Shown here in pieces: positions 1 through 25,020 of a stretch of DNA of 64,000 bases. Below the pieces are notes generated by a model. The model was given only the letters and a program-made list of their open reading frames with translations. It did not search any database and was not told the DNA's origin. The position numbers and the translations under genes are program-made. Position 1 is the first letter of the stretch. Every line of letters starts with the position of its first letter. The DNA comes from Ignavibacteriota bacterium. GTDB taxonomy: Bacteria; Bacteroidota; Ignavibacteria; UBA10030. The stretch covers positions 1-64,000 of the forward strand of contig CAVSHO010000007.1 in NCBI GenBank assembly GCA_963727825.1, in the 5' to 3' direction.

Positions 1-1
1 A

Positions 2-7106: not shown

Positions 7107-7122
7107 AGAGGCCGGTTTTCGC

Positions 7123-7260
7123 ACTTGCAAGGGCTTGCAGCAGAACGCATCTATTTGCAGCAAGTATCCTAGCGCAAGGAAATCTGTCAAGCGGACTTGC
7201 AAGGGCTTGTAATGATTTGCCGGGACTGCGAAAAGAATAATGTCACAGATAATGTCACAG
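7123..7260. repeat. Direct repeats next to the tRNA fragment (integrase arm-type-like)
   Basis: ACTTGCAAGGGCTTG at 7123 and 7195; tandem ATAATGTCACAG at 7237 and 7249. Confidence 0.7.
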
Positions 7261-8050
7261 TTCAGCAAGCCAGGCAGATGGGGACGTGCGCGGTTGCCCA
7301 GCTTTGCAGCGCGTGGACGCAAATCTGGTCTTATTCGCGCGCGGCGCGGCACCGTCGCGTAGGTCGCTCAACCGGGTTAGTCGTCCTAAACATCGATCCG
7401 GTCGCCGGAGGGAGAACATAGGAAGCAAACGAACTCCTCCTTGCTCTCTCCCGCGCACTCCACCGCTTCGGTTTGCGTCGCCAGCCAGCCGGGAGCCCAG
7501 GGAATGCTCGTAGGCTGACAGAGCTTTTGGACCTACCCTCCGAGATACTGCTTGGCTCTGTGTTCATGAATGCAAGGTAGGTCCAGTCCACAGAATCGGG
7601 GGAACTCCAAGTGCAGCCCGAGCGTTGGGGGATCTACTTTTGGGCTGCAAGGAATGCCATGACATTGGCCACCGTGAGAAGCCCAGAGAGACCGCGATGT
7701 CACCGAAATGCCGCTTGTCGCCCGATGTCTTTGCGCGCACGACATCGTCCACCCGGAACTGATTCATCGCGCCCGTTCTGATCATGGAGTCGCCGATTCG
7801 CTCTGATATGGAATTCCTTACTTGAGCGTACGCTTGCACCTCGACGTAGCTCCAGCCGCTGGTGCCGGTTTCCGTGCGCCACGGTTCGTCCGGCGGTGTC
7901 ATGGATTCATTCCACCTAACGTTCAGCGAAATGCGGTGGCTCTTCACTCCGGCGACACGGACGGCCGCAGTGCTGCCCAGGCCACCTGCGCCATGGTTGA
8001 TGGAGATTGCCGCATGCCACCTTCGGTCCTACTCCCGGATTACTGTTTTC

Positions 8051-8305
8051 CTACAACTCGTGGATCGGCGAAGTGATCCAGCGCGTCCCGGGCAGTGCTC
8101 CTGAAACTCCACGCCTCACCGCCCTCCGACCCTCCCTGGAACCAGTTGCTTCGTGCCAGGGCGAAAGGTAGACCCATTCTACCGGGCACCAAAAGGTGCT
8201 CGTGCCGCGCCGTATGGTACTCACCACTGGAATGGGGGTGGAGTCGATGTCGATCATCTTCGCCGCCCGCCTCACGGCGGCCTCCCGCTCGGAGGCCTTG
8301 ATCAC
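8051..8305 (-). pseudogene. D-lyxose/D-mannose isomerase (cupin) remnant with internal deletion
   Basis: N-terminus MIKASEREAAVRRAAKMI, then in another frame the C-terminal WFQGGSEGGEAWSFRSTARDALDHFADP; the central part is missing. Confidence 0.55.
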
Positions 8306-9291
8306 GTTGTGCCTCCCGGTCCCGTCAGACGGAGGATGTGCTCTTCGATGAACTGCCAGGTCTCCAGGTAGTCACGCCGCGCTACCAGGCGTCGGACCGT
8401 CGCGATCGATCTCCTGCAGCCGCTGCCACACCCGGGTGGTGAGGCGGGCGTTGGCCGCAAAATCCCCTCGATGGCAAGCCGCGTCGGCGAGGTGTCGGAG
8501 GTCAGGTAGTCATCGTAGCCGTGCTCCATCAGGTAGAAGAGAAACTCCACGTAGTCGATGAAGTGCCGCGACCCGGCGATCAAGTCCCAGTCCCATCGCC
8601 CGTCGTTGTCGTTGATGTGGACATATGCGCGCTGGCCGCGGGAAACGACCATTGAGAAGGCCTCCGCGGGATTCTCCTGCGCGTACAGGGAATGGCCGAA
8701 GTCGATGGTTACGCCCATGTGCGAGGACTGGATGTCCTGGATGAGGCAGAGTGCCTTTGCGGCCGTGTCCACGAAGCAACGCGCGCGGGTCTCGCTGGGC
8801 TTGTACTCCACGAAAAGCGGTACCTCCGGGAGGTACTCTGCCGCTTCGCCAAAACCTTCAACGAGGAAGCGCCACATGCGCGCGTAGTCGCAGTGAAAGT
8901 TGAACTCGTAACCATCACCCAGCGGGCAGCAGGTTACCTTGTCCGCCCGCACCGCCTTCGCGAACTCCTTTGCCCGCTTGATGAGGCCCACGGCCTTTGC
9001 GCGAACCGCTGCGTCCACGGACGTTAGGCCTCCGTCACGAAAGTCAGGTTCCGCCTTCACGTTTGCATTGATCGCAGCAACGCCCAGCTTGTACTTCGAG
9101 AGCAGCGCCCGAAGGGCCCCCGGGTCATCTGCCTCGTAGTGGTGCACGATCTCCACCCCGGTTATACCCTCGATGCGGGAGGCCGTTTCGAGCCTCTCCT
9201 CCAAGGTTCTAACCGCGTGGTACTCGTGGAAGCGGTCGTGCGTCCGGCTGAGAAAGCTCGTGATGAGAGCGTTTTTCACTGTGCCTGCCAT
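8302..9291 (-). CDS. Sugar phosphate isomerase/epimerase (xylose isomerase-like TIM barrel)
   Basis: VEYKPSE, GVTIDFGHS, YVHINDNDGRWDWDL; probable frameshift near the C-terminus. Confidence 0.85.
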   Translation of the reverse strand: MAGTVKNALITSFLSRTHDRFHEYHAVRTLEERLETASRIEGITGVEIVHHYEADDPGALRALLSKYKLGVAAINANVKAEPDFRDGGLTSVDAAVRAKAVGLIKRAKEFAKAVRADKVTCCPLGDGYEFNFHCDYARMWRFLVEGFGEAAEYLPEVPLFVEYKPSETRARCFVDTAAKALCLIQDIQSSHMGVTIDFGHSLYAQENPAEAFSMVVSRGQRAYVHINDNDGRWDWDLIAGSRHFIDYVEFLFYLMEHGYDDYLTSDTSPTRLAIEGILRPTPASPPGCGSGCRRSIATVRRLVARRDYLETWQFIEEHILRLTGPGGTT

Positions 9292-9660
9292 GACATGCCT
9301 CCGTGCTATTGATCTCGTTGCTTCGCTTGATGACGCTTCCGTCGCGCAGGAAAAACGCGCCGTCCGCCGGCCGCGCCCCGGTCCCCGCGATTCACCGCGC
9401 CCTCCCGTACAAAGCTATTCTTCTTGCCATAGCTTGCACCTGCTTGCAGCAATTTGCTCATTTTGCCTCACATCTTTTATCTCATACCCTGCGGGAATTA
9501 CAAGACGTTGTCGTCAGAGTGGGTAAGGTATCGCTCGTCTTGATCTGACTTTGCAGTATTCGTGAATGAGCGGCTTTTCTATTTGTATCCTTTGTCCTAC
9601 AGTGTTGAGCGTGCCTGCCCTCTGTCGCATGGATCATGGCACTTTCCTTGAGGAGACGGT

Positions 9661-10202
9661 ATGAAGATTGACGACTTTGAATCATACAAATCAACTGACG
9701 AGCTTTCCGAAGCGTGGAAGCACCCTCCCCACGGCGGGTGGATACGGCAGACGCTGGATCTGACGGAGAAGCACAGCGGAACCCAGTGCATGAAGGTCGA
9801 ATACAGGACGCTCAAGGAGCCGAAACTGTTCTACTGCCCGATCTGCACCATGGGGACATGGGACCTGTCAGGCTGCAACGCATTTCAGTTCTGGTTGAAG
9901 CCGGACGGCTTCGCAGGGAACTGGGCGCGGAGCTCAACTGCGCCGACGCATCGGGGAAGAACATACATGATCTGTGGGGCTGGACGTACAAGCCTCCCCG
10001 GGGCGATGACACCTGGCGCGCCGTCACCATTCCGTTCGCTGCCTTCATCCACAACCTCGAGTACGTGGAGACTGCTGACTGGAGCCTGGTCTTCAAACCG
10101 CAATCCGTCATCGAGGTCGCCTTCTACATCGGTGGGGGCAACGAGACTATCTTCGGTGATGGCGTGTACCGCTTCGACGATCTCCAGGGCGTTCGGGCCT
10201 GA
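9661..10202 (+). CDS. Stand-alone CBM11/CIA30-like carbohydrate-binding domain protein (frameshifted)
   Basis: KIDDFESY, WDLSGCNAFQFWLKPDG, WRAVTIPFAAF, GVYRFDDL in ORFs 9661 and 9714. Confidence 0.6.
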
Positions 10203-10217
10203 CGCGAGAACCTTCGA

Positions 10218-12280
10218 TTAATGCTCCCAGGCCACGACGACACCTTCCCAGGCAGGCACCGAAGAATGCCAGGAGCCTCGTGTTGGCTTCAGCTCTTCGG
10301 CCCCACGCTGCCCGAGTCGGCTCATCCGCCTGACAGGTTGTGAACCTTCCAGGGTGACGGTTTCTTCCGTCGCGCTGTGATTGACCACCACGGTGTACCC
10401 GCGCTCACGTCCGACGAGCGAGCCGGCTTCTACGCTGGGAAGACCTGTCCGCATACGCGTGAGTGCCCGCGCCTCGCTCGCCACTGCCTCGTAGATGCGC
10501 CAGGCGGGGTTGTCTCCCTCGAAGGCGTTCGGGCTTGTCCCAAGCATGGCCTCGAACGGAACGGAGCAAAGCGCCGCGAGCCCCGCTGAGTCCCGGCGGA
10601 TCACGAGGGCGGGGCATCCATGCTCGTCCTCGGCAACCACTTCTGCGCCCGTGAGCTCCAGGACTGCGGGCCACAACTGGTGGACGGATGCATCCCCCTT
10701 GAATGAGAAGGCTTCCCCGGGTTTCAAGCCGCCAAAGGGGCGGACGACCGTGAGGGTTGCACCCGCTGCCCGGGCGATGATCGGCGAGGCGCGCTCCGAA
10801 AAGATCCTCCATCTCAGGGATCGCGGCATCCGCGCCTACCGACGCGTAGACGGTTCCGCCGGAAGAGACGTGGCGCCGCACCCCTCCCCAGAAGGTCGTG
10901 TGGACGTGAGTGATGTCGCATTCCGTGCCGGTGAGAGGGGAGGGGAGCACGAGCAGGCGGGGCTCCTGCCAGTTCTGGTATTCGCGCACAAAAGCCGGCT
11001 TCTGCCCTGCCTGGCGGAGGAGGACGAACGCCGAGAGCTGGGCGCGCATGAAATGCAGGTTCTCGTCGGCAAAGGAACGACGCGGAAGCCCCTGGACGAG
11101 TCCGTTGTCCTGGTGATGGGCGACATACTGCCCGGCGCGGGTCTTCCATGCCCATGCGGCTGCAGTCTCCTTCCGGCTTGGACCACTCCCAGGGAACGAT
11201 CATTGCCGCGGTGGCCGGCTCGGGCTCGACCCCCTCCAGGTCGATCTGCGCCAGCGTAGCGGCGATCTCGCGGAACGCGGCGCCGGGCGGGCCGGGGCGT
11301 GCGGTCGTGGGTCAGCAGGCCGAACTGCGTCTCGTGAGGAACGGTCCTGTAGGGTGCGCGCCGCCAGGCATCGGGGGCGGCGTCGATCACGTCCCAGAGA
11401 AGAAAGCCGTTTGCACCCGCGGCGAAAGCCGCGTAAATCGATGCGCGGTCATAACGGGCAATCGTCTCGGGAAGATACTGGGCGGCCGATGCGCCCAGCT
11501 CGTGGATCATGACGGGCCTTCCCGCCCCGCTGGAAAGCGCGGCCTGAATGCGCCGGCGTAGGTCATGCGGACGGAGAGCATGGGATCCGGGAACAGCGAA
11601 GGCATGTAGATGGGATACTGGTGAGAGGAGAAGAAATCCACCTCGTCTGCAAGGAGGTCCGGGCGGAAAGGCCCGCGGCGCAGGTCCTCCTGGTCCGTCC
11701 CGACGCAGACGAGGTGACGGCTGTCAACGCGCCGCACCGCGCCGGCCACCAGTCGTGTCCAGTTGATGGCCATGGCGTCTGTCGTATGCGGGGCTCGCAC
11801 GATCCAGAAAGGCGGTTCGTCAGTCAGGTCCCACGCAAGGATGGCCGGCTCATCGCGGTAGCGGGATGCGATCTGCCGGGCATGATCGGTCTGGAGCCGA
11901 AGGAGGTCGGGGTCCGCGTGCGGGTGGCGGCCGTGACGGTAAGGGATGTCATAGTAGCCCGTCTCGCCCCCGATGAACATGCAGGGGTGGAGATAGATCC
12001 CGAACTCGTGCGCGAGACGGACAAACTCGTCGAGCTGTGAGAATGCCTGCGGGTTGTACTGCCCTGGGTAGGGCTCGAACCATGCCCAGAAAAGGTCGAT
12101 GCGGACCGCGTTGAATCCAAGGGCTTTCATGGCCGCAAAATCGGCACGGATCTCCTTCGGTTCCCATTCCAACGGCCAGTGCAATCCGTTCGATGCCACC
12201 CAGTGTGCCCCCATCGGCACGAAGCGGCCCTTGTCGTTGCGAAGGTACGTGCCATCGCGCCGGACGAATGTTAGGTTCAC
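10218..12280 (-). CDS. Clan GH-A glycoside hydrolase (GH5/GH42-like), several frameshifts
   Basis: GFNAVRIDLFWAWFEPYPGQYN, acid/base motif LAWDLTDEPP, FFSSHQYP, nucleophile region IHELG, GFLLW, PHETQFGL; C-terminal GH42-like trimerisation domain. Confidence 0.8.
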
Positions 12281-12294
12281 AGGGGTTCTCCCGG

Positions 12295-13352
12295 CTATTC
12301 CTTCGCTGTCACCTTGCTCGAAAAGCTGAACTCGCCTGCCGTTCGGCCGCGCAGCTCGCCCAGGGCCAGGGTCATCATCTGCACGGGAAGCATTTCGAGC
12401 ATTGTCAGTGCAGTCCCGGTGGCCTCCGCAATCCCCCATGCGCCGACCGGACCTGCCGCGCTGAACGAGGGCGGTCTTCCCTCCCCAGACGCCGAATGTC
12501 GTCATGGAGTCCCACGCTCAGGGCTTGAGAAGGCTCACTTCCGGCAAACACGACGACAAAGGTCTCCGGGCCGATCATCTCCAGCGGCCCGTGCCGGAAC
12601 GCCGCGCAGCTCATGCCCTCGGCGGGGACATGGGTGGACTCCTTGATCACCAGCCCACCCGTGCACGCGGCGGTCAGGGAAGCCCCGCGTCCGCCAAGTA
12701 GATCTGGCGGATGCCCTTCAGCTCGGCCGTCAGTTCTCGTACGAAAACCTGCCAATGATGCAGGTAGCCGGTGATCGCGGCGGCAGCTGCCTCGAGGGGG
12801 GCGGTCTCCAGCGGGACGCGGAGGAGCAGGTCTCCCAGCAGCGACTGCGCCGCCAGGCACGCGGTGAATGTCTTGCAGTCTACGGTGGCCTCCGGCCCGA
12901 CGGCGAACACGAACGCAGCGGCAGCCCTGCGGGCCAGCGGCCCCTCGGGCTCATTCGTCAGGCCGATCACTTTGCGCCGGTTCCCGCAGTCATCAAGCAG
13001 GCGCACGATCTCGGCGCTTGCTCCGGACGCGGCTCGCTGCGATGACCAGGGTCCGCTCGCCCTCCAGGAGCGCGTGAGAGTGGTAGAGCAGCTCAGAGGT
13101 CTCCACGAGCCATGCATTCCGTCGAGCCTCGATGAGCCGCAGGTACAGGGGGTGCAAGGCCCAGAAGGACGAGCCCATCCCGGTGAGGATGAATCGGTCG
13201 AACGAGCCGCCCTGCAGCAGGCCGGGGAGCGCACCTTCTCGGCATGCTTCTGCCATGCGTTCTATTGCGGGTGCCAACACATGTGCCTGCTCGAGAATGT
13301 CGCTCACGTAGGGCGCTTCTGCGCCGGATCGTGTGAGGATATCGTCCTTCAT
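12295..13352 (-). CDS. SIS-domain sugar-phosphate isomerase/deaminase (GlmS-C/AgaS/FrlB-like), frameshifted
   Basis: SDILEQ, LTGMGSS, VGPEATVDCKTFT, IKESTHVPAEGMSCAAFRHGPLEM, C-terminal KVTAKE*. Confidence 0.85.
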
Positions 13353-13478
13353 TGCTTCCCTTCCTGTCGCGTGTCGCTTTCGCCCTAGAGGAAGGGGCTC
13401 CACCGTGTGCGTGAAGCCCCCTTCCTGTGCCGTCGCATCGAGCGGTACCGCCCGCGGCGGGACCGCCGGTTGGCGTGC

Positions 13479-14962
13479 CTACTTCTTGTTTGCTTTCAGC
13501 CAGGCATTTAGCTGCGCGTTCTGGTCCGCGAGCAGCTTGTCGATGCCGCCCGCCTTCAGCTTGTCAAGGAACTTCTGATACGTGCCGTCCGCGCGGGCGT
13601 CGACGGTGCCGGAAGAAATCTGCGGATCGAACTCCGCCGCCACGTTGGCCAGTTCGCTGAGCTCGTCCTTCATGTTGCTCGGATCATAGACGAAGCCAAG
13701 CGAGGAGTTTCTCACCGCGCTGTTGTTGAAATCTGCGAGCCTCTTGGCTCCGTTGGGAGGATCGATGTCCAGATCGAAGTTCAGGGCCTGGTTGCCCCAC
13801 TCCCAGACCTGGTTGTAGTACAACGGGTTGGCGGGATCGTTTCCCTTGGCGAACGATATGAGATTGCCGCCCTTCTTCACGTAATGAACGCCTTCAACGC
13901 CGTAGACAAGCATGTTCTGCACGGTCTTGTCGGTGTGCATGAGGTTCAGGAGCATCATGGCCCGCTCGGGATTCTTGGTCTGCCGAGGAATCGCCCACAT
14001 TGTCCCCTGCACGAGGCTCGTCGAGATGATGGGCTTTATGACGTTGAGAACGACTATCGGGGTTCCAATCTGGCGGCCCGTGACCTCCTGTGTGAGGTAA
14101 TTGGTATTGTCAGTATAGGAGAAGATTTTCCCCGATTTCATCATGTCGACCGGATCTGCCCGCGTCGTGGCAATGTCCTGGTTTGTGAGGCCCTCGACGA
14201 ACCACTTTCGAGCAATATCCATGGACTTCCGGTAATAGTCGGTATCGTAAAAGTTGAGGTACTTGGGAACCTGGTCGTAGATATTCATGGTGGTTACTTC
14301 GAACTGCCCCTGCCTGTCCCACGGCCCATTCCAGGAAAGAAGCTTGCTCGGGATGCCATAGTAGGGGGTGATGTCAGGCTCTTTCTGCTTGATGACCTTG
14401 AACAGCGGCTCCAGGTCCTCGGGGTTCGTGACGTCCTTCACCTTGAAGTTGACCGACGGGCCGTACTTGTCCAGCAGGTCCTTGCGAATGATGAAGCCCC
14501 GGGTCTGCGCCAGTATCTGGTTCGAGGGGATAGCGTAGAGCTTGCCGTTCATGCGGCCGGAGTCCAGGGTCCACTTGTAGCTGCTGTTGAGAATGCCTTG
14601 ACCGTATTTCTGGATGAGGCGGTCAGGTCGAGAAACGCGCCTTTTGGCGCGTTCGTGGTATAGCCGCACCATGGGGCCGTGAAGATCAAGTCGGCGTCCT
14701 CTCCCGATGCGAGGATCAGGTTGGCCTTGTCATTCCACGCGTCCCAGTCGTACTGATCGAGAACGATCGTGGCATTGATCTTGGGCTTCAGATACGCGGT
14801 GAGTGCGTCGCTGACCGCCTGGACGTCCTTTTGGGGCGGCCCGCAGGCGATGATCTTCAAGGTCACCGGCGCAAGCGTCTGGGCGGTCGCCGCCAGTGCG
14901 GGCACCAGAGTGCAGAGCACCGCAGCGGCCGCGCAAATAAGGAATCTCCGTGTGCGTTTCAT
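13479..14962 (-). CDS. Carbohydrate ABC transporter substrate-binding protein (LplA/DUF3502-like), one frameshift
   Basis: Signal peptide, LILASGEDADLIF, NGKLYAIPS, KNPERAMMLLNL, LVYGVEGVHY, KLKAGGIDKL..QLNAW. Confidence 0.9.
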
Positions 14963-15062
14963 AGTTATCCCCCTTCAGAGTGTTCAGGCCGTTCTCGGCC
15001 TGGAATGGAAAAGAACCTCGGTTCGCGAAGGTCTGCGCGCCTGCTACCCTCCTTTCCTTCTC

Positions 15063-15959
15063 TCATCCTTTTATCGCGCCTACCGTCAGGCCCTGGATGA
15101 AATACCTCTGGAAAAACGGGTATGCCACGACGATGGGACCGATCCCCACCACCGCCATGGCCATCCTCACCGTTTCGCTCGGCATGGATGACCTGTTCAC
15201 CCTGGAAGCGACGGCCGGATTGGCAAGCATGAACTGGATGTTCTGCATTGTCTTCAGCATGTAGTACTGGATGCTGACATTCTGGCGATTGGAGATGAAC
15301 AGGAGGCTCATGAACCAGTCGTTCCAGTACACGAGGGTGGTGAACAGGCCGATGGTGGCGAAAGCGGGAAGTGCAAGCGGCGCGACGATGCGGAAAAGAA
15401 TCGTCATCTCGCGCGCACCGTGAGCTTTGCCGATTCCACGAGCGAATCGGGGATGGAGCCCGTCAGGAATGTGCGCATGACGATGACGTAGAAAGGATTC
15501 AGAAGGTAGGGGAGGATCAGGGCGATCAGCGAGTTCTTCAAATGGAGGTACTGGGTGTAAAGAATGTAGAACGGAACCAGTCCGCCGTTGAAAACCATGG
15601 TAATGAAAAGGAAAATTGCGAAGAAGCGCCGGTAGGGAAAGTCCTTGCGGAAAAGCGGGTAAGCGTACAAGGCGGTCAATAGGAGACTGACCACGGTACC
15701 GACGCCCGTGACGATGATCGATATGACGTAGGATCTGCCGATCTGCTGGATATCGAGAGCCAGGAACTTGTACGCTTGTAGGCTGAAAACGCGCGGTATC
15801 AGCCGGGTAGCCCACCCGCATCACTATCCTCTCATCGGTAAGGGACACTCCCACCACGATGAGAAAGGGGATCACGCAGGCCAGGGTGCAGAGTATGAAA
15901 ACCAGGTGAATGACCGCCCCGGCTCCCGGGGAGATTGTGTTGAGCGGTCGCCTTTTCAT
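15063..15959 (-). CDS. Carbohydrate ABC transporter permease (LplC/MalG-like), frameshifted
   Basis: EAA loop IPDSLVESAK, FNGGLVPFY, YWNDWF, YPFFQRYFIQGLTVGAIKG. Confidence 0.9.
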   Translation of the reverse strand: MKRRPLNTISPGAGAVIHLVFILCTLACVIPFLIVVGVSLTDERIVMRVGYPADTARFQPTSVQVPGSRYPADRQILRHIDHRHGRRYRGQSPIDRLVRLPAFPQGLSLPALLRNFPFHYHGFQRRTGSVLHSLHPVPPFEELADRPDPPLPSESFLRHRHAHIPDGLHPRFARGIGKAHGAREMTILFRIVAPLALPAFATIGLFTTLVYWNDWFMSLLFISNRQNVSIQYYMLKTMQNIQFMLANPAVASRVNRSSMPSETVRMAMAVVGIGPIVVAYPFFQRYFIQGLTVGAIKG

Positions 15960-16889
15960 AGCAACGCCCTTTCCGGGTTGATGCGGCGAATAACGAGGTT
16001 CGTGGCAAGAACCAACACGAACCCCACGACCGATTGGTAGAATCCCGCGGCAGAGGCCATCGCGATATCGTTGGTCTGCGTCAGCGCGCGATACACGTAA
16101 GTGTCAATCACGTTCGTGACAGGAAACAACGGCCCCGACTGGAGGGGAACCTGGTAGAAAAGCCCGAAGTCCGAGTTGAAGATCCGCCCGACGGCGAGAA
16201 CGCTCAGGATGATGACCAGGGGCTGGAGAAAGGGAATAGAGATATAGCGCATCTGGACCCACTTGCCGCCCCCGTCACTGGCAATGGCTTCGTAGTACTC
16301 GGGGTTGATGCCAGCAAGGGCCGCAAGGTAAATGACCGTTGTGTAGCCGGCGTTTTTCCACGTGTTGATGATGGGAAGGAAGAAAGGCCAGTATTTCGGC
16401 GCGTTGTACCAAGGCACGGCGCGGATGCCGAAAAGGGGCAGCACCTCCTTGTTCATCACCCCGGTGTCGTGGGACAGGAAGGCATAGACGAGGTAGCTGA
16501 CCATGACCATTGAGAGGAAATAGGGAAAGAGCATTGATGTCTGGTAGATCTTTTTCAGTGCCCGGCCGCGGATCTCGTTCAGCAGGAGGGCGAGGGTGAC
16601 CGGCAATGGCGTTGAGCGCGATGAACAGCAGGTTGTAGCCGAGCGTGTTGCGCGTAATGATCCAGGCGTCCTGCATGGCGAAGAGGTAGTGAAAGTTCTT
16701 GAAGCCGACCCAGGGACTGCCGAACATTCCTTGCGTAAAGTTGTAGTCCTTGAAAGCGACGATCACCCCCACCATGGGGAAGTAGCTGTTGACCAGGGTG
16801 TAAACCACGGGGATGGCCAGCATCAGGAGCAACTCTCTGGAATGAAAGATGTTTTGAAAGAAAGATCTCTTCTTGCCCGCCACCCGCAT
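15956..16889 (-). CDS. Carbohydrate ABC transporter permease (LplB/MalF-like), one frameshift
   Basis: VAFKDY, SPWVGFKNF, IYLAALAGINPEYYEA, NVIDTYVYR, AAGFYQSVVG. Confidence 0.9.
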
Positions 16890-16943
16890 CGCCTGAATGC
16901 CCTTCTTAGGCAAGGTCGCCAAATTGGATTAGGTTAACCGTAC

Positions 16944-17045
16944 GACATGATGTCATGATAAGACAGGAGTTGTCAAGACTTTTCTTCGCCAGTTTGGGGT
17001 GCGATATTAGACATATTGACATGTCGACATGTTCTTCTTACTAAT
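16944..17045. promoter_or_regulatory. Divergent promoters with candidate operator boxes
   Basis: Palindrome CATGATGTCATG at 16946; TTGACA on the minus strand at ~16971; tandem octamers GACATATT-GACATGTC-GACATGTT at 17010-17033 overlapping TTGACA at 17016. Confidence 0.6.
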
Positions 17046-17084
17046 TGAAGAGTTGAGTAGACCTGTGCGCACGCTCGGAGGCAA

Positions 17085-19334
17085 ATGATGGGTCCGCGTT
17101 TCTCGGACAAACAGAAGAACCCCTTGGAGTTTTTCCCCATGGGCAACACGCATCATGCTGACTTTCTGAAGCAGTCTCCGCCCATGACGACATCCCAGTA
17201 CAAGGAGTTCATGGTTGGCGAGATCCGTGCCATGGTGGACGCCGGTTTCAACGTTTACAACATGAACTTCGGTTGGCTGGATCTCGAGATCCGCCCCGAC
17301 GTTTGGGATTTCGATCGTACGGACGCGGTATTCGAAATCTGCACCCAGCTTGGGCTGCCGTTCTTTGCCTGGATGTTCTCAGAACTCACTCCGCGATGGT
17401 TGACGCGAGAGCACCCCGAAACAGCGGCCGTCGCCGCAACGGGCTACCGAGGGCCTTCGCATAGCTACGGATCGTCCATCGCCCTCCAGCGCGTGCGCAC
17501 CTTCATTCACGCGGTTGTCCGCCGCTACGGGGATTCGCCTCTCTGCCTGGGGTACAACGTGGGGGTCGAGTCCGGTCTCTTCTGGTTGGAAGAACAGGAC
17601 AGCTCCGAGCCGGCGGCACGCCTTTGGGATTACAATGCCGAGGTAGTCGCGGGCTTTGCGCCCTGGCTGTCGCAGAAGTACCGGTCTATCGATGAGCTCA
17701 ATCGCATCTACAGAGATCACTACGAGTCCTTCGAAGAGGTGGAACCGCCCAACAGCCGCTACATCCAGGAGCAGTTCATGCTCATCAACCAGGTGCCATG
17801 GCTGGACTGGCGGTTGTACATGATCGACGTCCTCACCACGTACATCCACTTCAAAGCGGACGCGGTGCGCCAGCTGAAACCTGGTGCACTGGTGAGCGAC
17901 CAGTCCTACGTCATTGACCCGGCGAAAAACGCCCAGGACATCTGGAAGATAAACACGCGGATGGACGTCATCGGGACCAGCATGTTCGTCTCGAACAATC
18001 CAGGTGAGTTTACGCGCGCCGAGTACTGGGAGGACTACTTCCGCTGTTCAGCCCGCGGAAAGCCCTACTGGATCTGGGAGCTGCGCTGCGGCCAGAACGC
18101 GTGGGGGATCACCAACTGGGGACTTCCGGTCAGCGCCAACGACGTGGCGCGGTTCACCTGGCAGGCAATAGGCCACGACTGCAAGGCAATCCAGTACTGG
18201 AATTGGCGCCCGCATATCGGCGGCGTGGAGGTCGGGGGTCACGGTTTCACTGAACGTGACGGTAGCATGACCGACAGAGTGCGGCGGGTCGGGGGTATCA
18301 GCCGGCTGCTCCACCAGAACCGCGCCTGGTTCCTCGAGGCGCACGTTCCGCAGGCGGAGATTGCTCTCTTGGACAGCCCATTGTCGCGCATCATCGCCGC
18401 GGGGGAAGGCTCGGATGCGCTTGTCTTCGAATCGCAGGTCGGAGCCCACCACCTGTTGAAATCACTGGGGTATGACGTCGATTTCATCTGCGAAGAAGAG
18501 ATCGCGGCAGGCCTGCTTGCGCATTACCGGCTCCTGGTCGTGCCGTGTGCGTACGCTTTGAATCCCGCGACCGGCGCGGCGATCCGCTCCTGGGTGCACG
18601 CTGGCGGCTTCCTGCTCTCTGGCCTTTGGTGCGGCGCCAAGGACGAGCACGGCTACGGCCAGCCCGTGGTGCCTGGCTTCGGCCTTGCCGAAGTTTTCGG
18701 AGCCAGGGAGAAAGCGCTCTACCCGGTGTTCGCCGAGAAGGATCGCATGCAGACCAACATGCAGTTCGCTTTCAACGGTGCTATCACCGGAAGGCCCTTG
18801 TTTCGGATCGTGCAGCCGCTTCTGCCGGAGGGACGGGCACAACCAGGAGACACCTTCACGGGTTTCTGCTACGTTTCCGTCCTGAGTCCATCTCCGAACG
18901 CCGACGTCATTGCCGTGGATGGGCGGGAGCAACCGGTAGCCGTCAGGAATCGATTCGGAGACGGTCAGGCATTCATGGTGGGCTCGTTCCTGATTCCCGA
19001 GCAGGAGTTCGCGGTCACCGGTTTCAACCGGCTCGCCGAGGATTTTTCCGCGCTCGCCGGCCTGGAGCTTCCGCTCACAATCCTCAACCGTGGTAACCGC
19101 CAGGTGGCGGCGAAGCTTCTCCGTCATCCGGACAGCAGCCAGGTGATGATCGTTCTCAACAACGAGACACAGGCGGTTGACCTGAGCATCCGCCTTGGCG
19201 GACCAGCGGTGGCCCGCGCATTCGACCTTGAGGCGGTGACGGCCGTGACATTCTCCAAAAGCCCCGGGGGCTCGGTCATCCGCCTCCGGCTCGACCCGGG
19301 CGACGCTCGGGCAATTCGAATCGAGGCGCTATGA
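17085..19334 (+). CDS. GH42-like beta-glycosidase
   Basis: 749 aa intact; FGWLDLEIRPDVWDF, PRWL, WLDWR, WIWEL, IQYWNWRP, trimerisation domain. Confidence 0.85.
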   Translation: MMGPRFSDKQKNPLEFFPMGNTHHADFLKQSPPMTTSQYKEFMVGEIRAMVDAGFNVYNMNFGWLDLEIRPDVWDFDRTDAVFEICTQLGLPFFAWMFSELTPRWLTREHPETAAVAATGYRGPSHSYGSSIALQRVRTFIHAVVRRYGDSPLCLGYNVGVESGLFWLEEQDSSEPAARLWDYNAEVVAGFAPWLSQKYRSIDELNRIYRDHYESFEEVEPPNSRYIQEQFMLINQVPWLDWRLYMIDVLTTYIHFKADAVRQLKPGALVSDQSYVIDPAKNAQDIWKINTRMDVIGTSMFVSNNPGEFTRAEYWEDYFRCSARGKPYWIWELRCGQNAWGITNWGLPVSANDVARFTWQAIGHDCKAIQYWNWRPHIGGVEVGGHGFTERDGSMTDRVRRVGGISRLLHQNRAWFLEAHVPQAEIALLDSPLSRIIAAGEGSDALVFESQVGAHHLLKSLGYDVDFICEEEIAAGLLAHYRLLVVPCAYALNPATGAAIRSWVHAGGFLLSGLWCGAKDEHGYGQPVVPGFGLAEVFGAREKALYPVFAEKDRMQTNMQFAFNGAITGRPLFRIVQPLLPEGRAQPGDTFTGFCYVSVLSPSPNADVIAVDGREQPVAVRNRFGDGQAFMVGSFLIPEQEFAVTGFNRLAEDFSALAGLELPLTILNRGNRQVAAKLLRHPDSSQVMIVLNNETQAVDLSIRLGGPAVARAFDLEAVTAVTFSKSPGGSVIRLRLDPGDARAIRIEAL

Positions 19335-20343
19335 ACCAGTTCCTTAAGGACATTCTCGACCAGCCCGCGGCTCTCCAGACGGCTCTCGACTACACGCTCT
19401 CCTCGGTCGGGATGGCGGATCTTGGCCGCGCGGCCCGGATGATCACGTCGGCCAGGCGCGTGGTGCTCACGAGCATGGGCAGCGCCCTCTATTCGCTGAT
19501 ACCGCTTCACCACGAGCTCGCGCGCGTGCACCCCGCTGTCCACCTGGTCGAAACGGCGGAGCTCCTTGCCGAGCCTCTCTCCGGAAGCGATACGCTGTAC
19601 CTGATCTTGTCGCGCTCAGGTGAAAGCGGTGAAGTGGCAGCCTTCTCCACCTATCTCCACGAGCGTGGGATGCCGGTGATAGCCGTCACCATGACGCCTT
19701 CGAGCACGCTGGCGCGGAGCGCGGATCTCGTTCTCCACGATCCGGTTCCCTACGACGGCCTTATCTGCACGAAGGCATACACCACGTTGACGCTGGTCGG
19801 CCTGTTGCTGGCTTCGCAGGTCTCCGGCACCCTGACGGCGACACTCACGGCCGGTCTCGCCTCCTCGTTCGAGTGGCTGGAAGACAGCAAAGAGACTTTC
19901 CGGAAGGCCGCGGCCGCAATCGACTGGCTGAACGGCTCTCTCTACTTTCTCTCCTACGGTGTCGGCGATGCACTCACACTCTCCGGCCGGCGCTCTGGCT
20001 CGAAGAAGCCGCGCGGGTCCCTGCGTCGACGATGTCGATCGCGAACTTCCTGCACGGCCCTGTTGAGCAGGTGGACGCTCGGTTCCGCGGAGTTTGGATC
20101 GATCTTTCTCCGAGCGCCCATTCAAAAGCAAAGTTTGCGCAGGCATTTTCGCATGGCGGTCGCTGGATAAGGCTCATGATGGATGACGCTGCATCGGATT
20201 TTTCGCTACGCTCGCATGACCTCCCAACGTCCTTTCGCGTGCTGACGGCGGCTCTGCCGGTCCAGCTCATCGCGTGGCGGACAGCGGACACCCTCGGGAT
20301 CGAGGCCGGGGCGATGCGCTATGTGGGATGGGTGGTGAAGTGA
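19331..20343 (+). CDS. Second SIS-domain protein (GlcN6P deaminase/isomerase-like), one frameshift
   Basis: KDILDQPAAL, TSMGSA, SRSGES, CTKAYT, LWLEEAARVPA, NFLHGPVE. Confidence 0.85.
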
Positions 20344-21265
20344 GCATTCAGGGCCCGGTTCTCGGAATTGACGTCGGTGGCACGCGCACAAAGTTCGGCC
20401 TCGTCGATCTTGGGGAGAGAAAGATAATCGCGGAATTGGTGCGCCCGACCTGCACCGAGGGTCTTGGGCCGTATCTAGTCTCCATCAGCGAGGCATTCGC
20501 GGACTTGTGCCGGGCCGGGAAAATCGACCGGTGAGACAGGTACGAGCATGCGGCGTCGGTCTGCCAGGATTTGTCGGCCCGCGGATCAGCGCGATGTGGC
20601 AACCGCTCAGCTTTTTGGAAGGAGATCATTTCCTGCCCGCGTTGGAACGCGCGCTTCAGATGCCGATCCGGGCAGACAATGACGCGAGGGCCGTGGCGCT
20701 CGGAGAGGCGAACTTCGGGCCCTACGGCGGCGCGCAGCGCTTGCTGTCACTGACGCTGGGCTCCGGGCTCGGGTTCGGGTTCGTTGTGCAGGGACGCCTG
20801 CAGGAGCCGACTTCCATCAATCATCTCGCCGGGCACATCCCCGTTCGAACCATTGCGGAAAAGTGTTACTGCGGATTCAGCGGATGTCTGGAGATGCTTG
20901 TCAGCGCGTCGGGCTTGATGAGAAGCTACCGCGAAGCTTTTGCAGCGGCCGCGGAAGCAAAGGGAGGGGCTGCTACCGCGGAGGAAGTGTTTGAGGCCGC
21001 ACGCTCGGAGATGCCTGCAGCAGTCCACGCGGTGCGCCAGTGGCTCGTTGACGTATCGGCCGGATTGAATGCGTACATCTACCTGTTCGGGCCTGACACG
21101 ATCATCCTCGGGGGAGGACTGTCGAAGAGCGTCGATCCATGGATGCAAGAGCTCGATTCCTTGCTGTTCGCCCTCCCCTATGAAGGCTACACGGTGGAGT
21201 TGAAGAAGAGCTGCCTTCAGGAATCAGCGGGGGTGCTCGGAGCCGCCGCTCTTCTTCTCTCTTGA
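20340..21265 (+). CDS. ROK family sugar kinase, one frameshift
   Basis: LGIDVGGT, DNDARAVALGE, LTLGSGLG, GH..CYCGFSGCLE, ILGGG. Confidence 0.9.
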
Positions 21266-21281
21266 TTCGAGTGTTCGCGAC

Positions 21282-22063
21282 TCACACGCCCACGATCCGC
21301 TTGAAGCCCGCTTCACTGGAAACCATGTTGATGGCGAGAGTGAGCAAATCGCCGCGACCCACCGACGTCGTGCGTTCGATCGGAGAGCCGTTGTCGAGAT
21401 ACGTGATGTTCCTGATCGCGAAGGCGGATTTCGGTTCAGATGCATCGAGGCCGAACAGCTTTGCATCATCTCTTGCCATGATTATCGCTTCATATGTCTC
21501 TTCTGCATGGTCCAGAACAAAGCCGAATCGCTCTGTTAGAATCTTGTAGAGCGATCCCGCTTCCAGCTCTTTCTCCGCGAACCCGCGCAAAGGTACTCGG
21601 GGATCAGTGTTGTTTCTTTCAAGACAGGGATCTGGTTGGCGAGGCGCAATCTGCTGATCTTGGTTACTCTTCGATTGTTATCCGGCAGCTTAAGAAGCTC
21701 CATGGCTTCGGGGTCGGCTTCTTCGACGGAAAAGGCAAGCATCCTCGAGCTGGGCTCGAGCCCGAGATGCTTCATATCGCTGGAGAAGCTGTAAATCCTG
21801 TCGATATTCCGGCGCTGTTTCTGGTGGGCGACATACGTTCCCTTCCCTTGTCGCCTGGCAAGGTATCCTTCGACAACAAGCTTATTGATCGCCTCCCGTA
21901 CCGTTATGCGGCTCACCTGGAAGGTTTCGCAAAGCTCCGCTTCCGAAGGGATCTGCTCTTCTCCTTTGTACTCCTGGCGCTCTATTCTGTCCTTGATGAT
22001 CTTGGCCAGCTGATAGTACTTCGGGATACCCTCGGAGCTTTTGTCGACCAGCATACCTGCCAT
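21282..22063 (-). CDS. GntR/HutC-family regulator with UTRA domain (NagR/DasR-like), one frameshift
   Basis: PKYYQL, IPSEAELCETFQVSRITVREAI, RQGKGTYV; UTRA region SLYKIL..AEETYEA. Confidence 0.92.
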
Positions 22064-22130
22064 TGATCTGTCCTCCGAACAATTGTTCAGAAATAGCCTA
22101 AATTGTGCGCAATGCCATTTCGGCCATTAC

Positions 22131-22150
22131 TCATCATGACGTTATGATGA
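22131..22150. promoter_or_regulatory. Candidate GntR autoregulatory operator
   Basis: TCATCATGAC-GTTATGATGA (1 mismatch) upstream of gntR, with TTGACA on the minus strand at ~22180; resembles the box at 16946. Confidence 0.55.
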
Positions 22151-22258
22151 TGCAACCAGCATAGCCGTAACTGGGCATTTGTCAAGTAGTGCACGCAAGG
22201 ATCCGATTGGAGGATAAACATCACGGATCAAGCGGCCGGCCGCGGCGATTTCGTGCCG

Positions 22259-23050
22259 TCAGCTCCATTTGAACGCCACCGTCATGAGTTGCGAACTCGG
22301 TGTTATGAGCTCGACGTAGGTCTCGGCAGCGGTTTCGGGAGCGCGTACCGCGCTAATGATGCCCGCCAGGCTCGGCCTGCGGCGCATTAACAGATCCGGC
22401 ATTGCGCGAATATCTCGCGGCTGGCTGTCGTGCGGGACCCAGAGAGAAAGCTCTTTCATGAACGCGCTCGAATAGGGCACCGTGAAAGGCGATGGATAGC
22501 TCCCCTGAATGATTACCCGGCTCCCGGCACTGGCGAATCGTCCCAGTTCTTCGACCTCGCAAGTTCCATCGCCAACGCCAGGGCCGACGGGGCTCCAGTC
22601 GCATCCACGACCCGTCGGCGCCCTCGGACCGCACATCGAAAAACGTATCGGCCAACGCCCTTGCGGCACAAATGCCTCAATCCCGGCCTTCCTGGCGATT
22701 TCAGCGCGCCGTTCGGACAAGCCCATGCCGATCACCCGTCTCCGGTAAGGGCGTGGAGTCAGCCCGACGGCACCCAACCCGACGACAGCTACCGTCTCAT
22801 CCATTCGCGCCTGGCTGAGTCGCACGGTACGGTGCGCAATCGCCGCCAGCTTGGCGCCAACGCCCTCAAGCACATCGACGCCTTCAGGCATGACAAAAAT
22901 GTTGTACTCGGGCTGAACTGCAAGGCTGCAGTGGGCGCCCTCGACTCGGTTCACGCTGGCCATTTTTGTGCCGTCACAAAAGACAAGTGTCCCCTCTTGA
23001 GCGTGGTGTCACTGCCGCCAGCAAGGACTCGTCCTGGCCTTCGCTTTCAT
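22259..23050 (-). pseudogene. Zinc-type (MDR) alcohol dehydrogenase, degraded
   Basis: VAVVGLGAVG, VIIQGSYP, FMKEL; N-terminal GroES-like domain largely missing; multiple frameshifts. Confidence 0.7.
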
Positions 23051-23055
23051 CTATA

Positions 23056-23085
23056 TCCCTTAGTGTCCCTTAGTTGTCCCTTAGT
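23056..23085. repeat. Three TCCCTTAGT direct repeats at 10-11 bp spacing
   Basis: Copies at 23056, 23066 and 23077. Confidence 0.7.
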
Positions 23086-23170
23086 ATAGAAGAGTGCATT
23101 CCAATTGGTTATCTGTCTGTAGTCGATATGTTGTCATATCTTTTTTTCATGTCAAAGACGTCAATGTGAG

Positions 23171-23207
23171 ACCATATAGACATGTTGACATGTTGACATG
23201 TGTCATG
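23171..23207 (+). promoter_or_regulatory. Tandem GACATGTT octamer array (same motif as at 17010)
   Basis: GACATGTT-GACATGTT-GACATGTG at 23179-23202, containing two TTGACA. Confidence 0.6.
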
Positions 23208-23260
23208 CGGTAATAGGAGGAGTCGACAAACCTTGGGCACGGATGTGCGGAGGTCATGGA

Positions 23261-24684
23261 ATGGCGAACAAATACCAATTCGAAGACGGCAAGTTATACC
23301 AGGAAAGGACCGAGATACCGGTGTTCTGGTCAGGAGATGTCATCGTAGCGGCGGGGGACGGGCAGGCCCGGATCAGCCCTTTCAAGCGCTCGGAATGGAT
23401 GCTCCACGATTATCCTTGAAAAGCATGGATACATCGGTGGCATGGCCGCCTTCGGGGAAGGAATGCCCCTTGGCGGCGCGTATCCGGGGTACAAAGAAAA
23501 GAATCGGGGGCATTGCCGAAGAAATTCTGGACAGGCTCCGTCATGCGGGGCCGGATTCCGCCTCCGTACGGGACGTCAAGTATTTCAGTCTTTGGTTTTT
23601 CCACGATCCCGAGTACTTCCGGTATCTCGCCGGGGAGTTGCTGCAGGAAGCAGGAGCGAAAATCATGCTTCATGCAATGGTCGTTGATGTGATCATGGAG
23701 GGCAGGGGTCTGAGGGGAGTGATCATAGAATCGAAATCGGGCAGACAGGCGATACTTGCCAAAGTAACCATCGATTGCACGGGCGATGCGGACATAGTGG
23801 CATGGGCCGGCGGTCCTTTTATCACCGGCGACGAGAGCCAGAGGACAATGGCCTTCACGCTTCCCTATGTCATGGCGGATGTGGATGTGCCACGGGCATG
23901 GCAATCTCTGGAGCAGGACCCCAGGCTCGTCAACGCAACGGCGCGCGCCCGGCGGGACGGTCTGCAAATCCATCCCGACGACAAGGTCTGGGGGCTGTTC
24001 AACGGCATCAGGCCCAATACGATTTATGCAAACAACACGAGGATCAACGGCTTCGACGGAAGCAACGCAGAGGAGATCACCCTGGCGGAACTGGAGGCCC
24101 GCAAACGAATTGCCATGCATATCGCCTTTTTCAGGAAGTATGTCCCGGGTTTGAAAAGGCCTACGTGTCAAAAGTCGGCGACCAGATAGGAATCCGCGAT
24201 ACCCGGAGGATACGAGGCGAGGCGACCCTCGAAACCGCGGATGCTGTCGTTCAGGAAGCGCAACGATTCGGTCATCAGGGCTGCGGGACCGCTTGACGAT
24301 GTGAGCAGGAAGAAGGACGGCAAAGGCACCGAGTCCAGCGTGAAGGAACTGGAGAACGACAAGGACTGGTACGACGTGCCCTATGGCGCGCTGGTGCCGC
24401 AGGGCCTGGACAACATCCTGGTTGCCGGAAGGATGTTCTCATCATCACATCTCGCCCAGGCAGGAACGCGGGGCATGGGCACGATGATCGGTTTCGGCCA
24501 CGTGGCGGGAATCGCGGCCTCCATCGTCGCTCGACGGGGAATCAAGGCGCGCGACGTTGACGTTGCGGAGCTGCGCCGGATGCTCGTTGAGCAGGGCTGT
24601 GACCTGGACGGCACCCGTTCCGCGGAAGATCACGGCGATGAGAAGATGTACATGAGCGGTGTCATCTATCCCGAGAAGGCGTAG
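23261..24684 (+). CDS. FAD-dependent oxidoreductase (FAD_oxidored family), frameshifted
   Basis: ESKSGRQAILAKVTIDCTGDADI, QIGIRDTRRIRGE, YDVPYGALVP..NILVAGR; the GxGxxG region is garbled at ~23345-23400. Confidence 0.85.
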
Positions 24685-24721
24685 GGAGCATGTCGATGGC
24701 GGGGTGCGGCCTCCCCTGACA

Positions 24722-25020
24722 CTACTCTACGACCAGGACCTCGTGATCCAGGATCGAAGCGATGGAGACGGTGATCCGTCCATCAGCCGCGACCGCGGCG
24801 AGTGACCGTTCGCTGACGAGGGCTCGCGCCGATCCGCCATCAACATGATCTGCAAGCCTGACGCGTAGCGTGAACGGGCCGATCGGCACAAGCTCTCGAA
24901 CCGGTGCCTGCTGGGCACCCGGATTCGTCAGATTGACCAGATGCACTATCATCCGACCGGGTTGGCGGTAAAGACGACAATCGAGGAGCCCCGGCCCAAG
25001 CACCTCCAGCTCAGGGTTGC
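24722..25020 (-). pseudogene. C-terminal fragment of a glycoside-hydrolase-like/Tat-secreted protein, cut at the GC junction
   Basis: EVLGPGLLDC..MIVHLVNLTNP..VRELVPIGP..SILDHEVLVVE; upstream of 25020 the frame is only the antisense of bamD. Confidence 0.6.

Follow-up and report, generated by a model that had tools for sequence, protein, structure and literature searches.

A candidate amino-sugar regulon with atypical GH5- and GH42-like hydrolases on a chimeric contig end of an Ignavibacteriota assembly

Gene content and operator sites of the locus

We examined the first 64 kb of contig CAVSHO010000007.1 (C7) from an Ignavibacteriota bacterium whose genome assembly comprises 3.12 Mb in 14 contigs; "the window" refers to this whole stretch of 64,000 nucleotides (nt). 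At 10218-24680 it contains ten genes that, from their sequence and context, probably form a regulon for amino-sugar catabolism. An initial annotation of this DNA had described two divergent operons and a GntR-UTRA regulator at 10218-22063, and its gene list was borne out when we called genes from open reading frames (ORFs) and Pfam matches. The features of the locus are as follows.

10218..12300, minus strand: predicted GH5-type exo-glycosidase of GH42-like architecture, in three frames (weak Pfam matches to GH42, GH35 and GH5)
12405..13403, minus strand: SIS1, a double-SIS protein like the isomerase domain of GlmS, in three frames (about five frameshifts; 352 amino acids (aa) when intact)
13479..14962, minus strand: lipoprotein solute-binding protein (SBP; SBP_bac_8 and DUF3502), with a 1-base deletion near 14621
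15063..15959, minus strand: ATP-binding cassette (ABC) permease, LplC-like (BPD_transp_1)
15956..16922, minus strand: ABC permease, LplB-like (BPD_transp_1), two bases being deleted near 16604
16923..17084: promoter region between the divergent operons; operator-like palindromes lie at 16945-16958, 17011-17024 and 17019-17032
17085..19334, plus strand: GH42-like hydrolase (GH42 and GH42M), an intact ORF of 749 aa
19331..20343, plus strand: SIS2, the other double-SIS paralogue of GlmS type (intact length 335 aa), with a 2-base insertion near 19988
20274..21265, plus strand: ROK-family sugar kinase, with a 2-base insertion near 20533
21285..22063, minus strand: GntR/HutC-family regulator with a UTRA domain, one base being deleted near 21582
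22134..22147: palindrome of the operator type in the promoter of the regulator gene itself
23180..23201: a pair of overlapping palindromes of the same type, upstream of the oxidoreductase gene
23240..24680, plus strand: flavin adenine dinucleotide (FAD)-dependent oxidoreductase (PF12831), frameshifted

Nine of these ten genes are frameshifted and only the GH42-like gene is intact. The GH5-like gene has at least four frameshifts (near 10759, 11134, 11285 and 11546), and compensating 1-base indels near 15422 and 15805 scramble about 128 codons of the LplC-like permease. Compared with a related metagenome contig (L003), the locus has about 21 intragenic indels with lengths that are not multiples of three, their positions being approximate at this divergence. 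Seven are in 13479-22164, nine in 10665-13478, and five in the oxidoreductase gene. The GH42-like gene has no frameshift over 2.25 kb, compared with an average of about 1.5 per kb in the surrounding genes. The ratio of nonsynonymous to synonymous substitution rates (dN/dS) is 0.05-0.16 for in-frame segments of the broken genes and 0.09 for the intact GH42-like gene, and no in-frame stop codons were found in the in-frame segments of the frameshifted genes. The genes were therefore either under purifying selection until very recently, or they carry consensus errors from thinly covered foreign reads.

The complete gene set occurs unbroken in relatives with 84% nucleotide identity, L003 and L011. 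One direction on these contigs encodes the GH5-like enzyme (688 aa, P0031), SIS1 (352), the SBP (495) and the two permeases (298 and 309), and the divergent direction encodes the GH42-like enzyme (748), SIS2 (335) and the ROK protein (330). The GntR regulator (260) and the FAD oxidoreductase (485) are also present.

The palindrome WCATGWCGWCATGW matched seven sites in the window with no more than two mismatches, compared with 2.6 expected, and none of 100 shuffled sequences reached seven. Six of the seven sites are in three promoters and the seventh is inside the SBP gene. The site at 17019-17032 is a perfect ACATGTCGACATGT, and at the position of the gntR promoter palindrome both L003 and L011 have a perfect one. 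No matches were seen in the host part of the window, and the motif was also not found in 1-10200. The operator sites are kept in L003, L011 and L004, and a variant is kept in a clade with 61-63% identity. Because the palindromes are conserved at shared promoters, the word regulon used by the initial annotation is justified, and the predicted regulon reaches 24680. It thus includes the FAD oxidoreductase, which lay outside the region first described. The shared operator suggests that this gene is co-regulated with the rest; a search for solved structures found no informative relative of its product.

The regulator matches GntR (PF00392) and UTRA (PF07702) both as the window fragment and as intact orthologues, which is the domain layout of the GntR/HutC family. 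The ROK protein matches PF00480, its orthologues are 298-330 aa long, and in the NagC and Mlc models the first matched positions are 83-91. By these matches it is a predicted sugar kinase with no DNA-binding domain and not a repressor. The best NCBIfam subfamily for these ROK kinases is glucokinase, with NanK second.

Origin of the DNA at the start of contig C7

The locus lies in a block of DNA that differs from the rest of the genome. The features that define this block and its junction with host DNA, and the other genes recognised in it, are listed below.

1..25011: foreign block of 59% GC at the start of C7, delimited by GC content, colinearity with L003 and the overlap with contig C8
154-483: DDE transposase fragment, in the foreign block
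2666-3271: L-fucose-isomerase-like gene, frameshifted, in the foreign block
3385-4389: GFO/IDH/MocA oxidoreductase gene, frameshifted, in the foreign block
8302-9291: xylose-isomerase-like TIM-barrel gene, apparently intact, in the foreign block
24725..25009, minus strand: GHL6-type glycosidase-like gene, cut by the junction with its last 95 codons left
25012..25654, plus strand: BamD/YfiO lipoprotein gene of the host, with its 5' end missing, which marks the junction

GC content is 56-66% from base 1 to about 25010, where it steps down to about 40%; the genome mean is 41%. Elsewhere in the genome only one 5-kb window exceeds 52% GC, near the far end of C7. Window positions 10665-25010 have a colinear counterpart on contig L003, with 73-84% nucleotide identity, and the similarity stops at 25010, within the GHL6-type gene. 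A complete BamD/YfiO gene, with a signal peptide and native upstream DNA of 40-46% GC, is present on C8, and C7 carries only the 3' part of it. We found no close homologue of the GH42-like protein in 15 genomes of the same genus, in which the best match was 30% identical. Because of the GC step, the end of L003 similarity at 25010, the intact bamD on C8 and the absence from these 15 genomes, we conclude that the start of C7 is a chimeric end, or that the 25-kb block at the least has no support from the alternative contig C8. The nearest named relatives of the block are metagenome-assembled genomes (MAGs) labelled "uncultured Chloroflexia", with 61-63% protein identity, and the block most resembles metagenome contigs of Chloroflexota type. 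Its source was thus probably a high-GC, Chloroflexota-like organism.

It is improbable that the block is instead a real, horizontally acquired island that is decaying in this genome, with frameshifts that reflect true pseudogenisation rather than assembly artefacts. Such an island would account for the joining of the block to host DNA in the assembly and for the DDE transposase fragment at 154-483, and the frameshifts are not confined to homopolymers and include some 2-base indels. However, the junction breaks both a foreign gene and bamD in the middle of their codon strings while an intact bamD with native flanks exists on C8, and the block is located at a contig end. The broken genes lack in-frame stops and have a dN/dS as low as that of the intact gene, the genome has an estimated contamination of 6.55% (with an estimated completeness of 96.82%), and the gene is missing from the 15 genomes of the genus. 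The locus does not belong to the genome with which it was assembled: the DNA is foreign and, as sequenced, broken. An annotation that relied on the contig would wrongly credit the locus to a 41% GC genome.

Three further observations concern contig ends. The segment C7:25012-44427 repeats C8:176224-194674, the final 18.4 kb of C8, at 98.3-99.3% identity with a divergent gap at C7 33884-36099; it resembles redundant or haplotype overlap remaining in the assembly. At the opposite end of C7 (G000:C7:322000-324925; L203 10000-12926), the last 3 kb or so have 64-66% GC. No rRNA was found in C7:322000-324925 (Rfam gathering search, 0 matches), and this end may be a second foreign or chimeric one. 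Finally, the end of a 996-kb contig from a Bacteroidales MAG holds an incomplete GH5-like gene of the Asp-Glu type described below (L083 8001-9593), with 52% identity to our query and a local rise in GC from 0.39 to 0.50. This may be a similar chimeric contig end.

Two hydrolase clades, the SIS proteins and their genomic linkage

The initial annotation had pointed out that neither hydrolase has the usual Asn-Glu at the acid/base position. Both deviating motifs, WDLTDEP and NVGVES, are in the ORFs named and align with the Asn-Glu of GH5 and GH42 structures. In the GH5-like enzyme, which has about 688 aa when intact, the motif AWDLTDEPPFW is in the ORF at 11507-12505. The Glu of WDLTDEPP aligns with the acid/base Glu of GH5 mannosidases (gNEl, gNEf), and Asp takes the place of Asn. 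We found 1205 homologues at E<=0.001, and among the matches listed WDL[TS]DEPP occurred in 120 of 120. The enzyme and its orthologue P0031 match PF00150 with 34 bits (cut-off 23.5), and R60, E155, H220, E261 and W296, the catalytic set expected for clan GH-A, are invariant in 25 GH5-like sequences. The best solved relative is Op5Man5 (7BOB; profile E 2.6e-30), a GH5 exo-beta-1,4-mannosidase with a GH42-type trimer (PMC8233224). Section 10 of that paper reports that Asn155 is conserved in all five GH5 mannosidases compared there; the corresponding residue here is Asp in all 120 matches listed. The same profile did not match the archaeal glucosaminidase GlmA significantly (E 0.014 for 5gsl and 0.022 for 5gsm).

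An exhaustive profile search returned 2518 relatives of the GH5-like enzyme. Among the best 116 representatives that cover the motif column, 62 have Asn-Glu and 50 have Asp-Glu, and the top scorers all have Asp-Glu. Acidic positions that are invariant in one clade and specific to it number 10 in the Asp-Glu clade and 2 in the nearest Asn-Glu clade. In a sequence alignment, D154 corresponds to Asn155 of Op5Man5 at subsite -1, E106 to Met104 in the pocket loop 103-108, and E198/D199 to Gln198/Gln199. In a manually docked model, Gln198 was placed at subsite +2 (PMC8233224, section 9). From this alignment, the extra carboxylates of the Asp-Glu clade appear compatible with a cationic oligosaccharide.

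The GH42-like enzyme has the motif GYNVGVESG in the ORF at 17085-19334, with E162 in NVGVESG preceded by Val in place of Asn and with E332 in WIWELR at the nucleophile position. Both GH42 domains are recognised (PF02449, 119.8 bits, cut-off 21; PF08532, 44 bits, cut-off 25.8). E162 and E332, at the catalytic Glu positions of strands 4 and 7, are invariant in 27 of 27 sequences, and in a phmmer search against solved structures E162 aligned with the Glu of NEYG in 5e9a, 9ta3 and 4ucf. The residue before the acid/base Glu is Val or Ile, not the Asn of GH42, in all 27. All 26 relatives, which come from metagenomes, Dactylosporangium siamense, Capsulimonas corticalis, Nibricoccus and others and are 40-88% identical, have the clade consensus N-[VI]-[GS]-[VI]-E-[STG]-G. 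The acid/base Glu is followed by an acid-rich insertion of some 16 residues. Profile matches to structures were best for GH42 beta-galactosidases (1e-37 to 2e-20), followed by GH164 (1e-14); matches to GlmA (5e-9 and 1.8e-7) cover only the first 210-220 or so profile positions. Because the Asp-Glu pair is found in 120 of 120 listed matches and the Val/Ile-Glu pair in 27 of 27 sequences, the motif deviations of the two hydrolases are not chance degeneracy.

A remoter GH42-like clade (L014-L024, L077) has 26-30% identity, a Gly-Ala-Glu-Ala-Gly acid/base site and an EELQGGP nucleophile. Its neighbourhoods are heterogeneous and uninformative about substrate, and a SIS gene adjoins none of its 12 loci.

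SIS1 and SIS2 are both double-SIS proteins and both match the isomerase domain of GlmS best. For four SIS1 members the NCBIfam models ranked in the order GlmS (1e-27 to 7e-40), NagB-II (to 7.5e-28), GlmD, AgaS and FrlB. The highest scores were 137 bits for GlmS and 98 for NagB-II, all SIS matches being below the curated cut-offs. Models for phosphoglucose isomerase (PGI) and phosphomannose isomerase (PMI) gave 12-18 bits against cut-offs of 214-730 (E 7e-4 to 0.08), which does not indicate membership, and FrlB (NF008481) matched with 38 bits at best, where its cut-off is 430. The two SIS proteins resemble each other more than they do GlmS, and GlmS more than AgaS or FrlB.

We aligned active-site residues with E. 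coli GlmS, FrlB and AgaS. In GlmS numbering the active-site residues of NagB-II are S303, S347, E488 and H504 (PMC10201695, Fig. 4 legend). The 59 SIS1 sequences keep S303, S347-Q348-S349, E488 and H504 of GlmS; K603 is kept in 58 of the 59, and K485 is replaced. All nine SIS2 sequences have S347, S349, E488 and H504, together with Ala303, Arg348 and Trp603. We considered SIS2 as an AgaS on account of a shared Arg at GlmS position 348 and dropped this, the SIS2 profile matching GlmS at 1e-23 and AgaS at 9e-5. In the window's own genome and 14 control genomes we found GlmS-level matches only and no true NagB-II or GlmD sequence.

Linkage was scored with one tblastn panel for both hydrolase sets, built from Asp-Glu loci together with E. 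coli GlmS, FrlB and AgaS. Greedy ORF calling gave wrong-strand ORFs in the loci of highest GC (L060, L026), where tblastn was used. Among species-representative genomes, 314 of 330 pattern hits encode a GH5-like relative. The best 80 Asp-Glu loci, from Chloroflexota, Acidobacteriota, some Proteobacteria and one Treponema, were taken as the linkage set, and a SIS gene was found in 63, ROK in 64, GntR in 58, NanE in 20 and DUF4127 in 17. Among the 54 loci that extend 5.5 kb or more to each side, SIS was present in 46 and SIS with ROK in 42. By contrast, 80 control loci, all confirmed as Asn-Glu, had SIS in 1, ROK in 1 and GntR in 2. The link between hydrolase, ROK and SIS proposed in the initial annotation thus recurs in other genomes and across phyla, and it is specific to the Asp-Glu clade (SIS in 63/80 compared with 1/80; ROK in 64/80). 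That annotation had also remarked on the lack of NagA and NagB; we found no homologue of the E. coli type in the window (tblastn, E<=1e-4), and none in any of the 80 Asp-Glu loci (tblastn).

The order of genes differs between lineages. Acidobacteriota loci typically have GntR, an outer-membrane barrel of the TonB-dependent type, the GH5-like gene, ROK, SIS1 and a major facilitator superfamily (MFS) transporter, and Chloroflexia loci typically have GntR, NanE, DUF4127, GH5-like, SBP, two permeases, ROK and SIS1. NanE and DUF4127 are directly upstream of the GH5-like gene at L048 5642-8004 and in 16 other Chloroflexia loci. The NanE of the L048 region is a true member of the ManNAc-6-P 2-epimerase family (297 bits, cut-off 189). 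For DUF4127, our literature search found no description, no solved relative was found and the Atlas gave only its own family. In Acidobacteriota, a conserved protein of about 330 aa without a Pfam family is encoded downstream of the MFS transporter in GH5-like/ROK/SIS1 loci (L067 12443-13435 and 21 others; 22/80), and one member has a weak, sub-threshold match to GH43.

A first genome scan with the single GH42-like protein gave one distant locus, and an alignment query was needed for the rest. At the 17 GH42-like loci with at least 41% identity, SIS2 is directly downstream in 13 and a SIS1-type gene upstream in 1; three have no SIS gene, one of them with only about 570 nt downstream, and ROK is present in 10. 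L003/L011 and L005/L025 are near-duplicates, and the independent lineages are fewer than 17. Dactylosporangium siamense NBRC 106093 (L026 4074-13257) has SIS1, ABC permeases, GntR, ROK, GH42-like and SIS2 genes and no GH5-like gene. This cultured actinomycete is a ready host for experiments on the GH42-like/SIS2 half of the system.

Amino-sugar catabolism, its alternatives and related systems

Our favoured reading, to which we give a probability of about 0.55, is that the locus at 10218-24680 is an error-ridden copy of a conserved amino-sugar catabolic regulon from a high-GC, Chloroflexota-like source, mis-joined to C7. A GntR/HutC-UTRA repressor would bind the palindromes at three promoters and control an ABC importer, two hydrolases, a ROK kinase, two double-SIS proteins and the FAD oxidoreductase. 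The importer would take up beta-linked oligosaccharides that contain unacetylated 2-amino sugars. Both hydrolases, predicted cytoplasmic and retaining exo-glycosidases of clan GH-A without the Asn of the Asn-Glu motif, would trim these to the free amino sugar, ROK would phosphorylate it at O6, and the SIS enzymes would deaminate or isomerise the sugar phosphate to fructose-6-phosphate and ammonia. The anatomy of the locus, its synteny, the conservation of the motifs, the chimeric junction and the operator sites are established observations; the substrates and every enzymatic step we infer. The amino-sugar reading is a prediction well supported by context.

The released sugar would be a 2-amino sugar because the O2-binding Asn is replaced throughout the clades, because ROK and SIS form a fixed operon with the hydrolase, and because the Asn-Glu relatives are almost always without both. 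Chitosan-type oligomers of glucosamine (GlcN) are the simplest and leading candidate substrate, and the acidic residues at the + subsites also fit them. Because NanE is present in 20 of the 80 loci, chitosan is only a leading candidate, and the sugars may be of mannosamine type in some lineages. The chitosan-like substrate of the initial annotation is thus supported by context linkage, with mannosamine-type sugars left as an option. Its proposal of SIS deaminases stands in so far as SIS1 keeps the catalytic residues of NagB-II and GlmS, and is weakened by scores far below the NagB-II and GlmD cut-offs.

Several observations weigh against this reading. The key position of the GH42-like enzyme is hydrophobic and not a carboxylate, so that recognition of an amine there is unexplained, and a role for GH42-like and SIS2 is harder to assign. 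The SIS proteins score 32-98 bits with NagB-II (cut-off 430) and 16-63 bits with GlmD (cut-off 580), below equivalog level, and the SIS fold also includes neutral isomerases. Five genomes that carry the module hold NagB-like matches of 105-130 bits, none over the cut-off; SIS1 need not be the sole deaminase in such genomes. No chitosanase and no deacetylase of family CE4 or CE14 was found in 79 neighbouring ORFs of nine loci, and NanE with DUF4127 suggests N-acyl-mannosamine chemistry in Chloroflexia. The closest characterised relatives are neutral-sugar enzymes (the beta-mannosidase Op5Man5 and GH42 beta-galactosidases), and our literature search found no characterised member of either hydrolase clade, SIS1 or SIS2. 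In the linkage comparison the Asp-Glu and Asn-Glu sets are taxonomically different, related loci do not count as independent, and the query panel was drawn from Asp-Glu loci.

The closest solved relatives, Op5Man5 (E 2.6e-30) and GH42 beta-galactosidases (E 1e-37), are what would be expected if this were a neutral-sugar locus, in which a GH5-like beta-mannosidase and a GH42-like beta-galactosidase or arabinopyranosidase feed a ROK kinase that makes hexose-6-phosphate and SIS proteins that act as isomerases of PMI or PGI type. A glycosidase, a kinase and an isomerase are also a full route to fructose-6-phosphate, and the ROK kinases match the glucokinase subfamily best. We nevertheless regard this as unlikely. 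True Asn-Glu relatives adjoin SIS or ROK in only one locus of 80 each, the PGI and PMI models reach 12-18 bits where GlmS reaches 137 and NagB-II 98, the O2-binding Asn is replaced in every member of both clades, and the extra invariant carboxylates map to substrate subsites. Catabolism of fructosamines (Amadori products) of the Frl/Fra type, with SIS deglycases and hydrolases in a side role, seems very improbable. The frl operon has a GntR regulator, an ABC transporter, a kinase and a double-SIS protein, a layout that the locus resembles, and FrlB models match SIS1 weakly (E 9e-10). However, the frl and fra operons use PfkB kinases and the kinase here is ROK, FrlB ranks below GlmS, NagB-II, GlmD and AgaS, and the tight linkage to glycosidases would be left unexplained.

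N-acetylated amino-sugar glycans are a further, quite unlikely, alternative. The hydrolases would release N-acetylmannosamine (ManNAc) or N-acetylglucosamine (GlcNAc), for example from cell-wall beta-ManNAc-(1,4)-GlcNAc, ROK would be NanK-like, and NanE and a NagA encoded elsewhere would supply glucosamine-6-phosphate (GlcN6P) to the SIS deaminase. This would suit the position of NanE (20/80) and DUF4127 (17/80) directly upstream of the GH5-like gene in Chloroflexia, the rank of NanK as second-best family for the ROK kinases, and a GH5-like fold nearest to beta-manno-specific enzymes. Set against it are the failure of tblastn to find a NagA homologue in the 80 loci or the window and the absence of NanE from the window locus and the Acidobacteriota loci. 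In addition, the Asp before the acid/base Glu in GlmA is reported to clash with an acetamido group (PMC6566704).

Beyond the amino-sugar reading itself, we suggest tentatively, and at rather less than even odds, that the two clades represent two new specificities. One would be a GH5-type Asp-Glu exo-beta-glucosaminidase or exo-beta-mannosaminidase acting on free-amine oligosaccharides and the other a GH42 Val/Ile-Glu enzyme acting on a second amino sugar, each with its own GlmS-derived SIS deaminase and ROK kinase. Together the two would make up a route by which bacteria use chitosan or other de-N-acetylated glycans, independent of GlmA-GlmD in origin and widespread in Acidobacteriota and Chloroflexota. 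If this is true, two of the best-studied CAZy families gain new specificities and the hydrolase/ROK/SIS module of Acidobacteriota, Chloroflexota and some Proteobacteria gains a function. The pathway would also account for the use of nitrogen-rich polymers of chitosan type by abundant, largely uncultured bacteria of soil and peat, the archaeal GlmA-GlmD logic would have been invented a second time and independently, and the single change of Asn to Asp could serve as a sequence marker. The finding is of interest mainly because it predicts, in a sharply testable way, new specificities in GH5 and GH42; that the window copy is broken and mis-assembled tempers it. A limited literature search found no description of the GH5-like Asp-Glu or the GH42-like clade.

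The Op5Man5 mannosidase (7BOB) shares with the GH5-like enzyme a TIM barrel with a GH42M-like domain, the Arg, both catalytic Glu, the His and the Trp. The GH5-like enzyme differs from it in having Asp for Asn155, an invariant Glu for Met104, Glu/Asp for Gln198/Gln199 and an added C-terminal domain, and in having SIS and ROK neighbours and no mannan-related genes. The GH42-like enzyme is like GH42 beta-galactosidases (5E9A, 3TTS, 1KWG) in its Pfam GH42 and GH42M domains, its full-length profile match and both catalytic Glu, but has Val or Ile for Asn in 27 of 27 sequences, the 16-residue acid-rich insertion and an adjoining SIS gene in 14 of 17 loci. SIS1 shares the double-SIS fold and S303, S347, E488 and H504 with NagB-II of Shewanella and the GlmS isomerase domain. 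Both SIS proteins differ from these in scoring far under the equivalog cut-offs and in the replacement of K485, and SIS2 also has Ala for S303 and Trp for K603.

The GlmA-GlmD route of Thermococcus and Pyrococcus (5GSL, 5GSM) is like the locus in having a cytoplasmic exo-hydrolase of clan GH-A with Asp for Asn, a kinase and a SIS-fold GlcN6P deaminase. In GlmA the residue before Glu179, Asp178, forms a pair with the ammonium group at C2, and exchanging it for Asn (D178N) abolishes activity (PMC6566704, section 4.3), which agrees with what the initial annotation said about this Asp. GlmA also has a GH42-like multidomain build, as does the GH5-like enzyme (PMC6566704). The likeness to GlmA drawn in that annotation holds for the Asp-Glu pair of the GH5-like enzyme and fails for the Val or Ile of the GH42-like enzyme. 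Neither hydrolase belongs by sequence with GlmA, which is a GH35 enzyme, the kinase here is ROK, and with GlmD the SIS proteins reach 16-63 bits, the cut-off being 580.

Among bacterial systems, csnR-K of Streptomyces acts on GlcN oligomers with the ABC importer CsnEFG, the cytoplasmic hydrolase CsnH and the ROK kinase CsnK (PMC5635096; bioRxiv 10.1101/2023.09.20.558697). The locus shares the importer, the cytoplasmic hydrolase and the ROK kinase with csnR-K. The differences are that these sources class CsnH as GH4, that csnR-K has a ROK repressor in place of a GntR regulator, and that it includes no SIS deaminase. Judged by its gene content, the locus would work like the GlmA-GlmD route and like the csn operon while being a member of neither.

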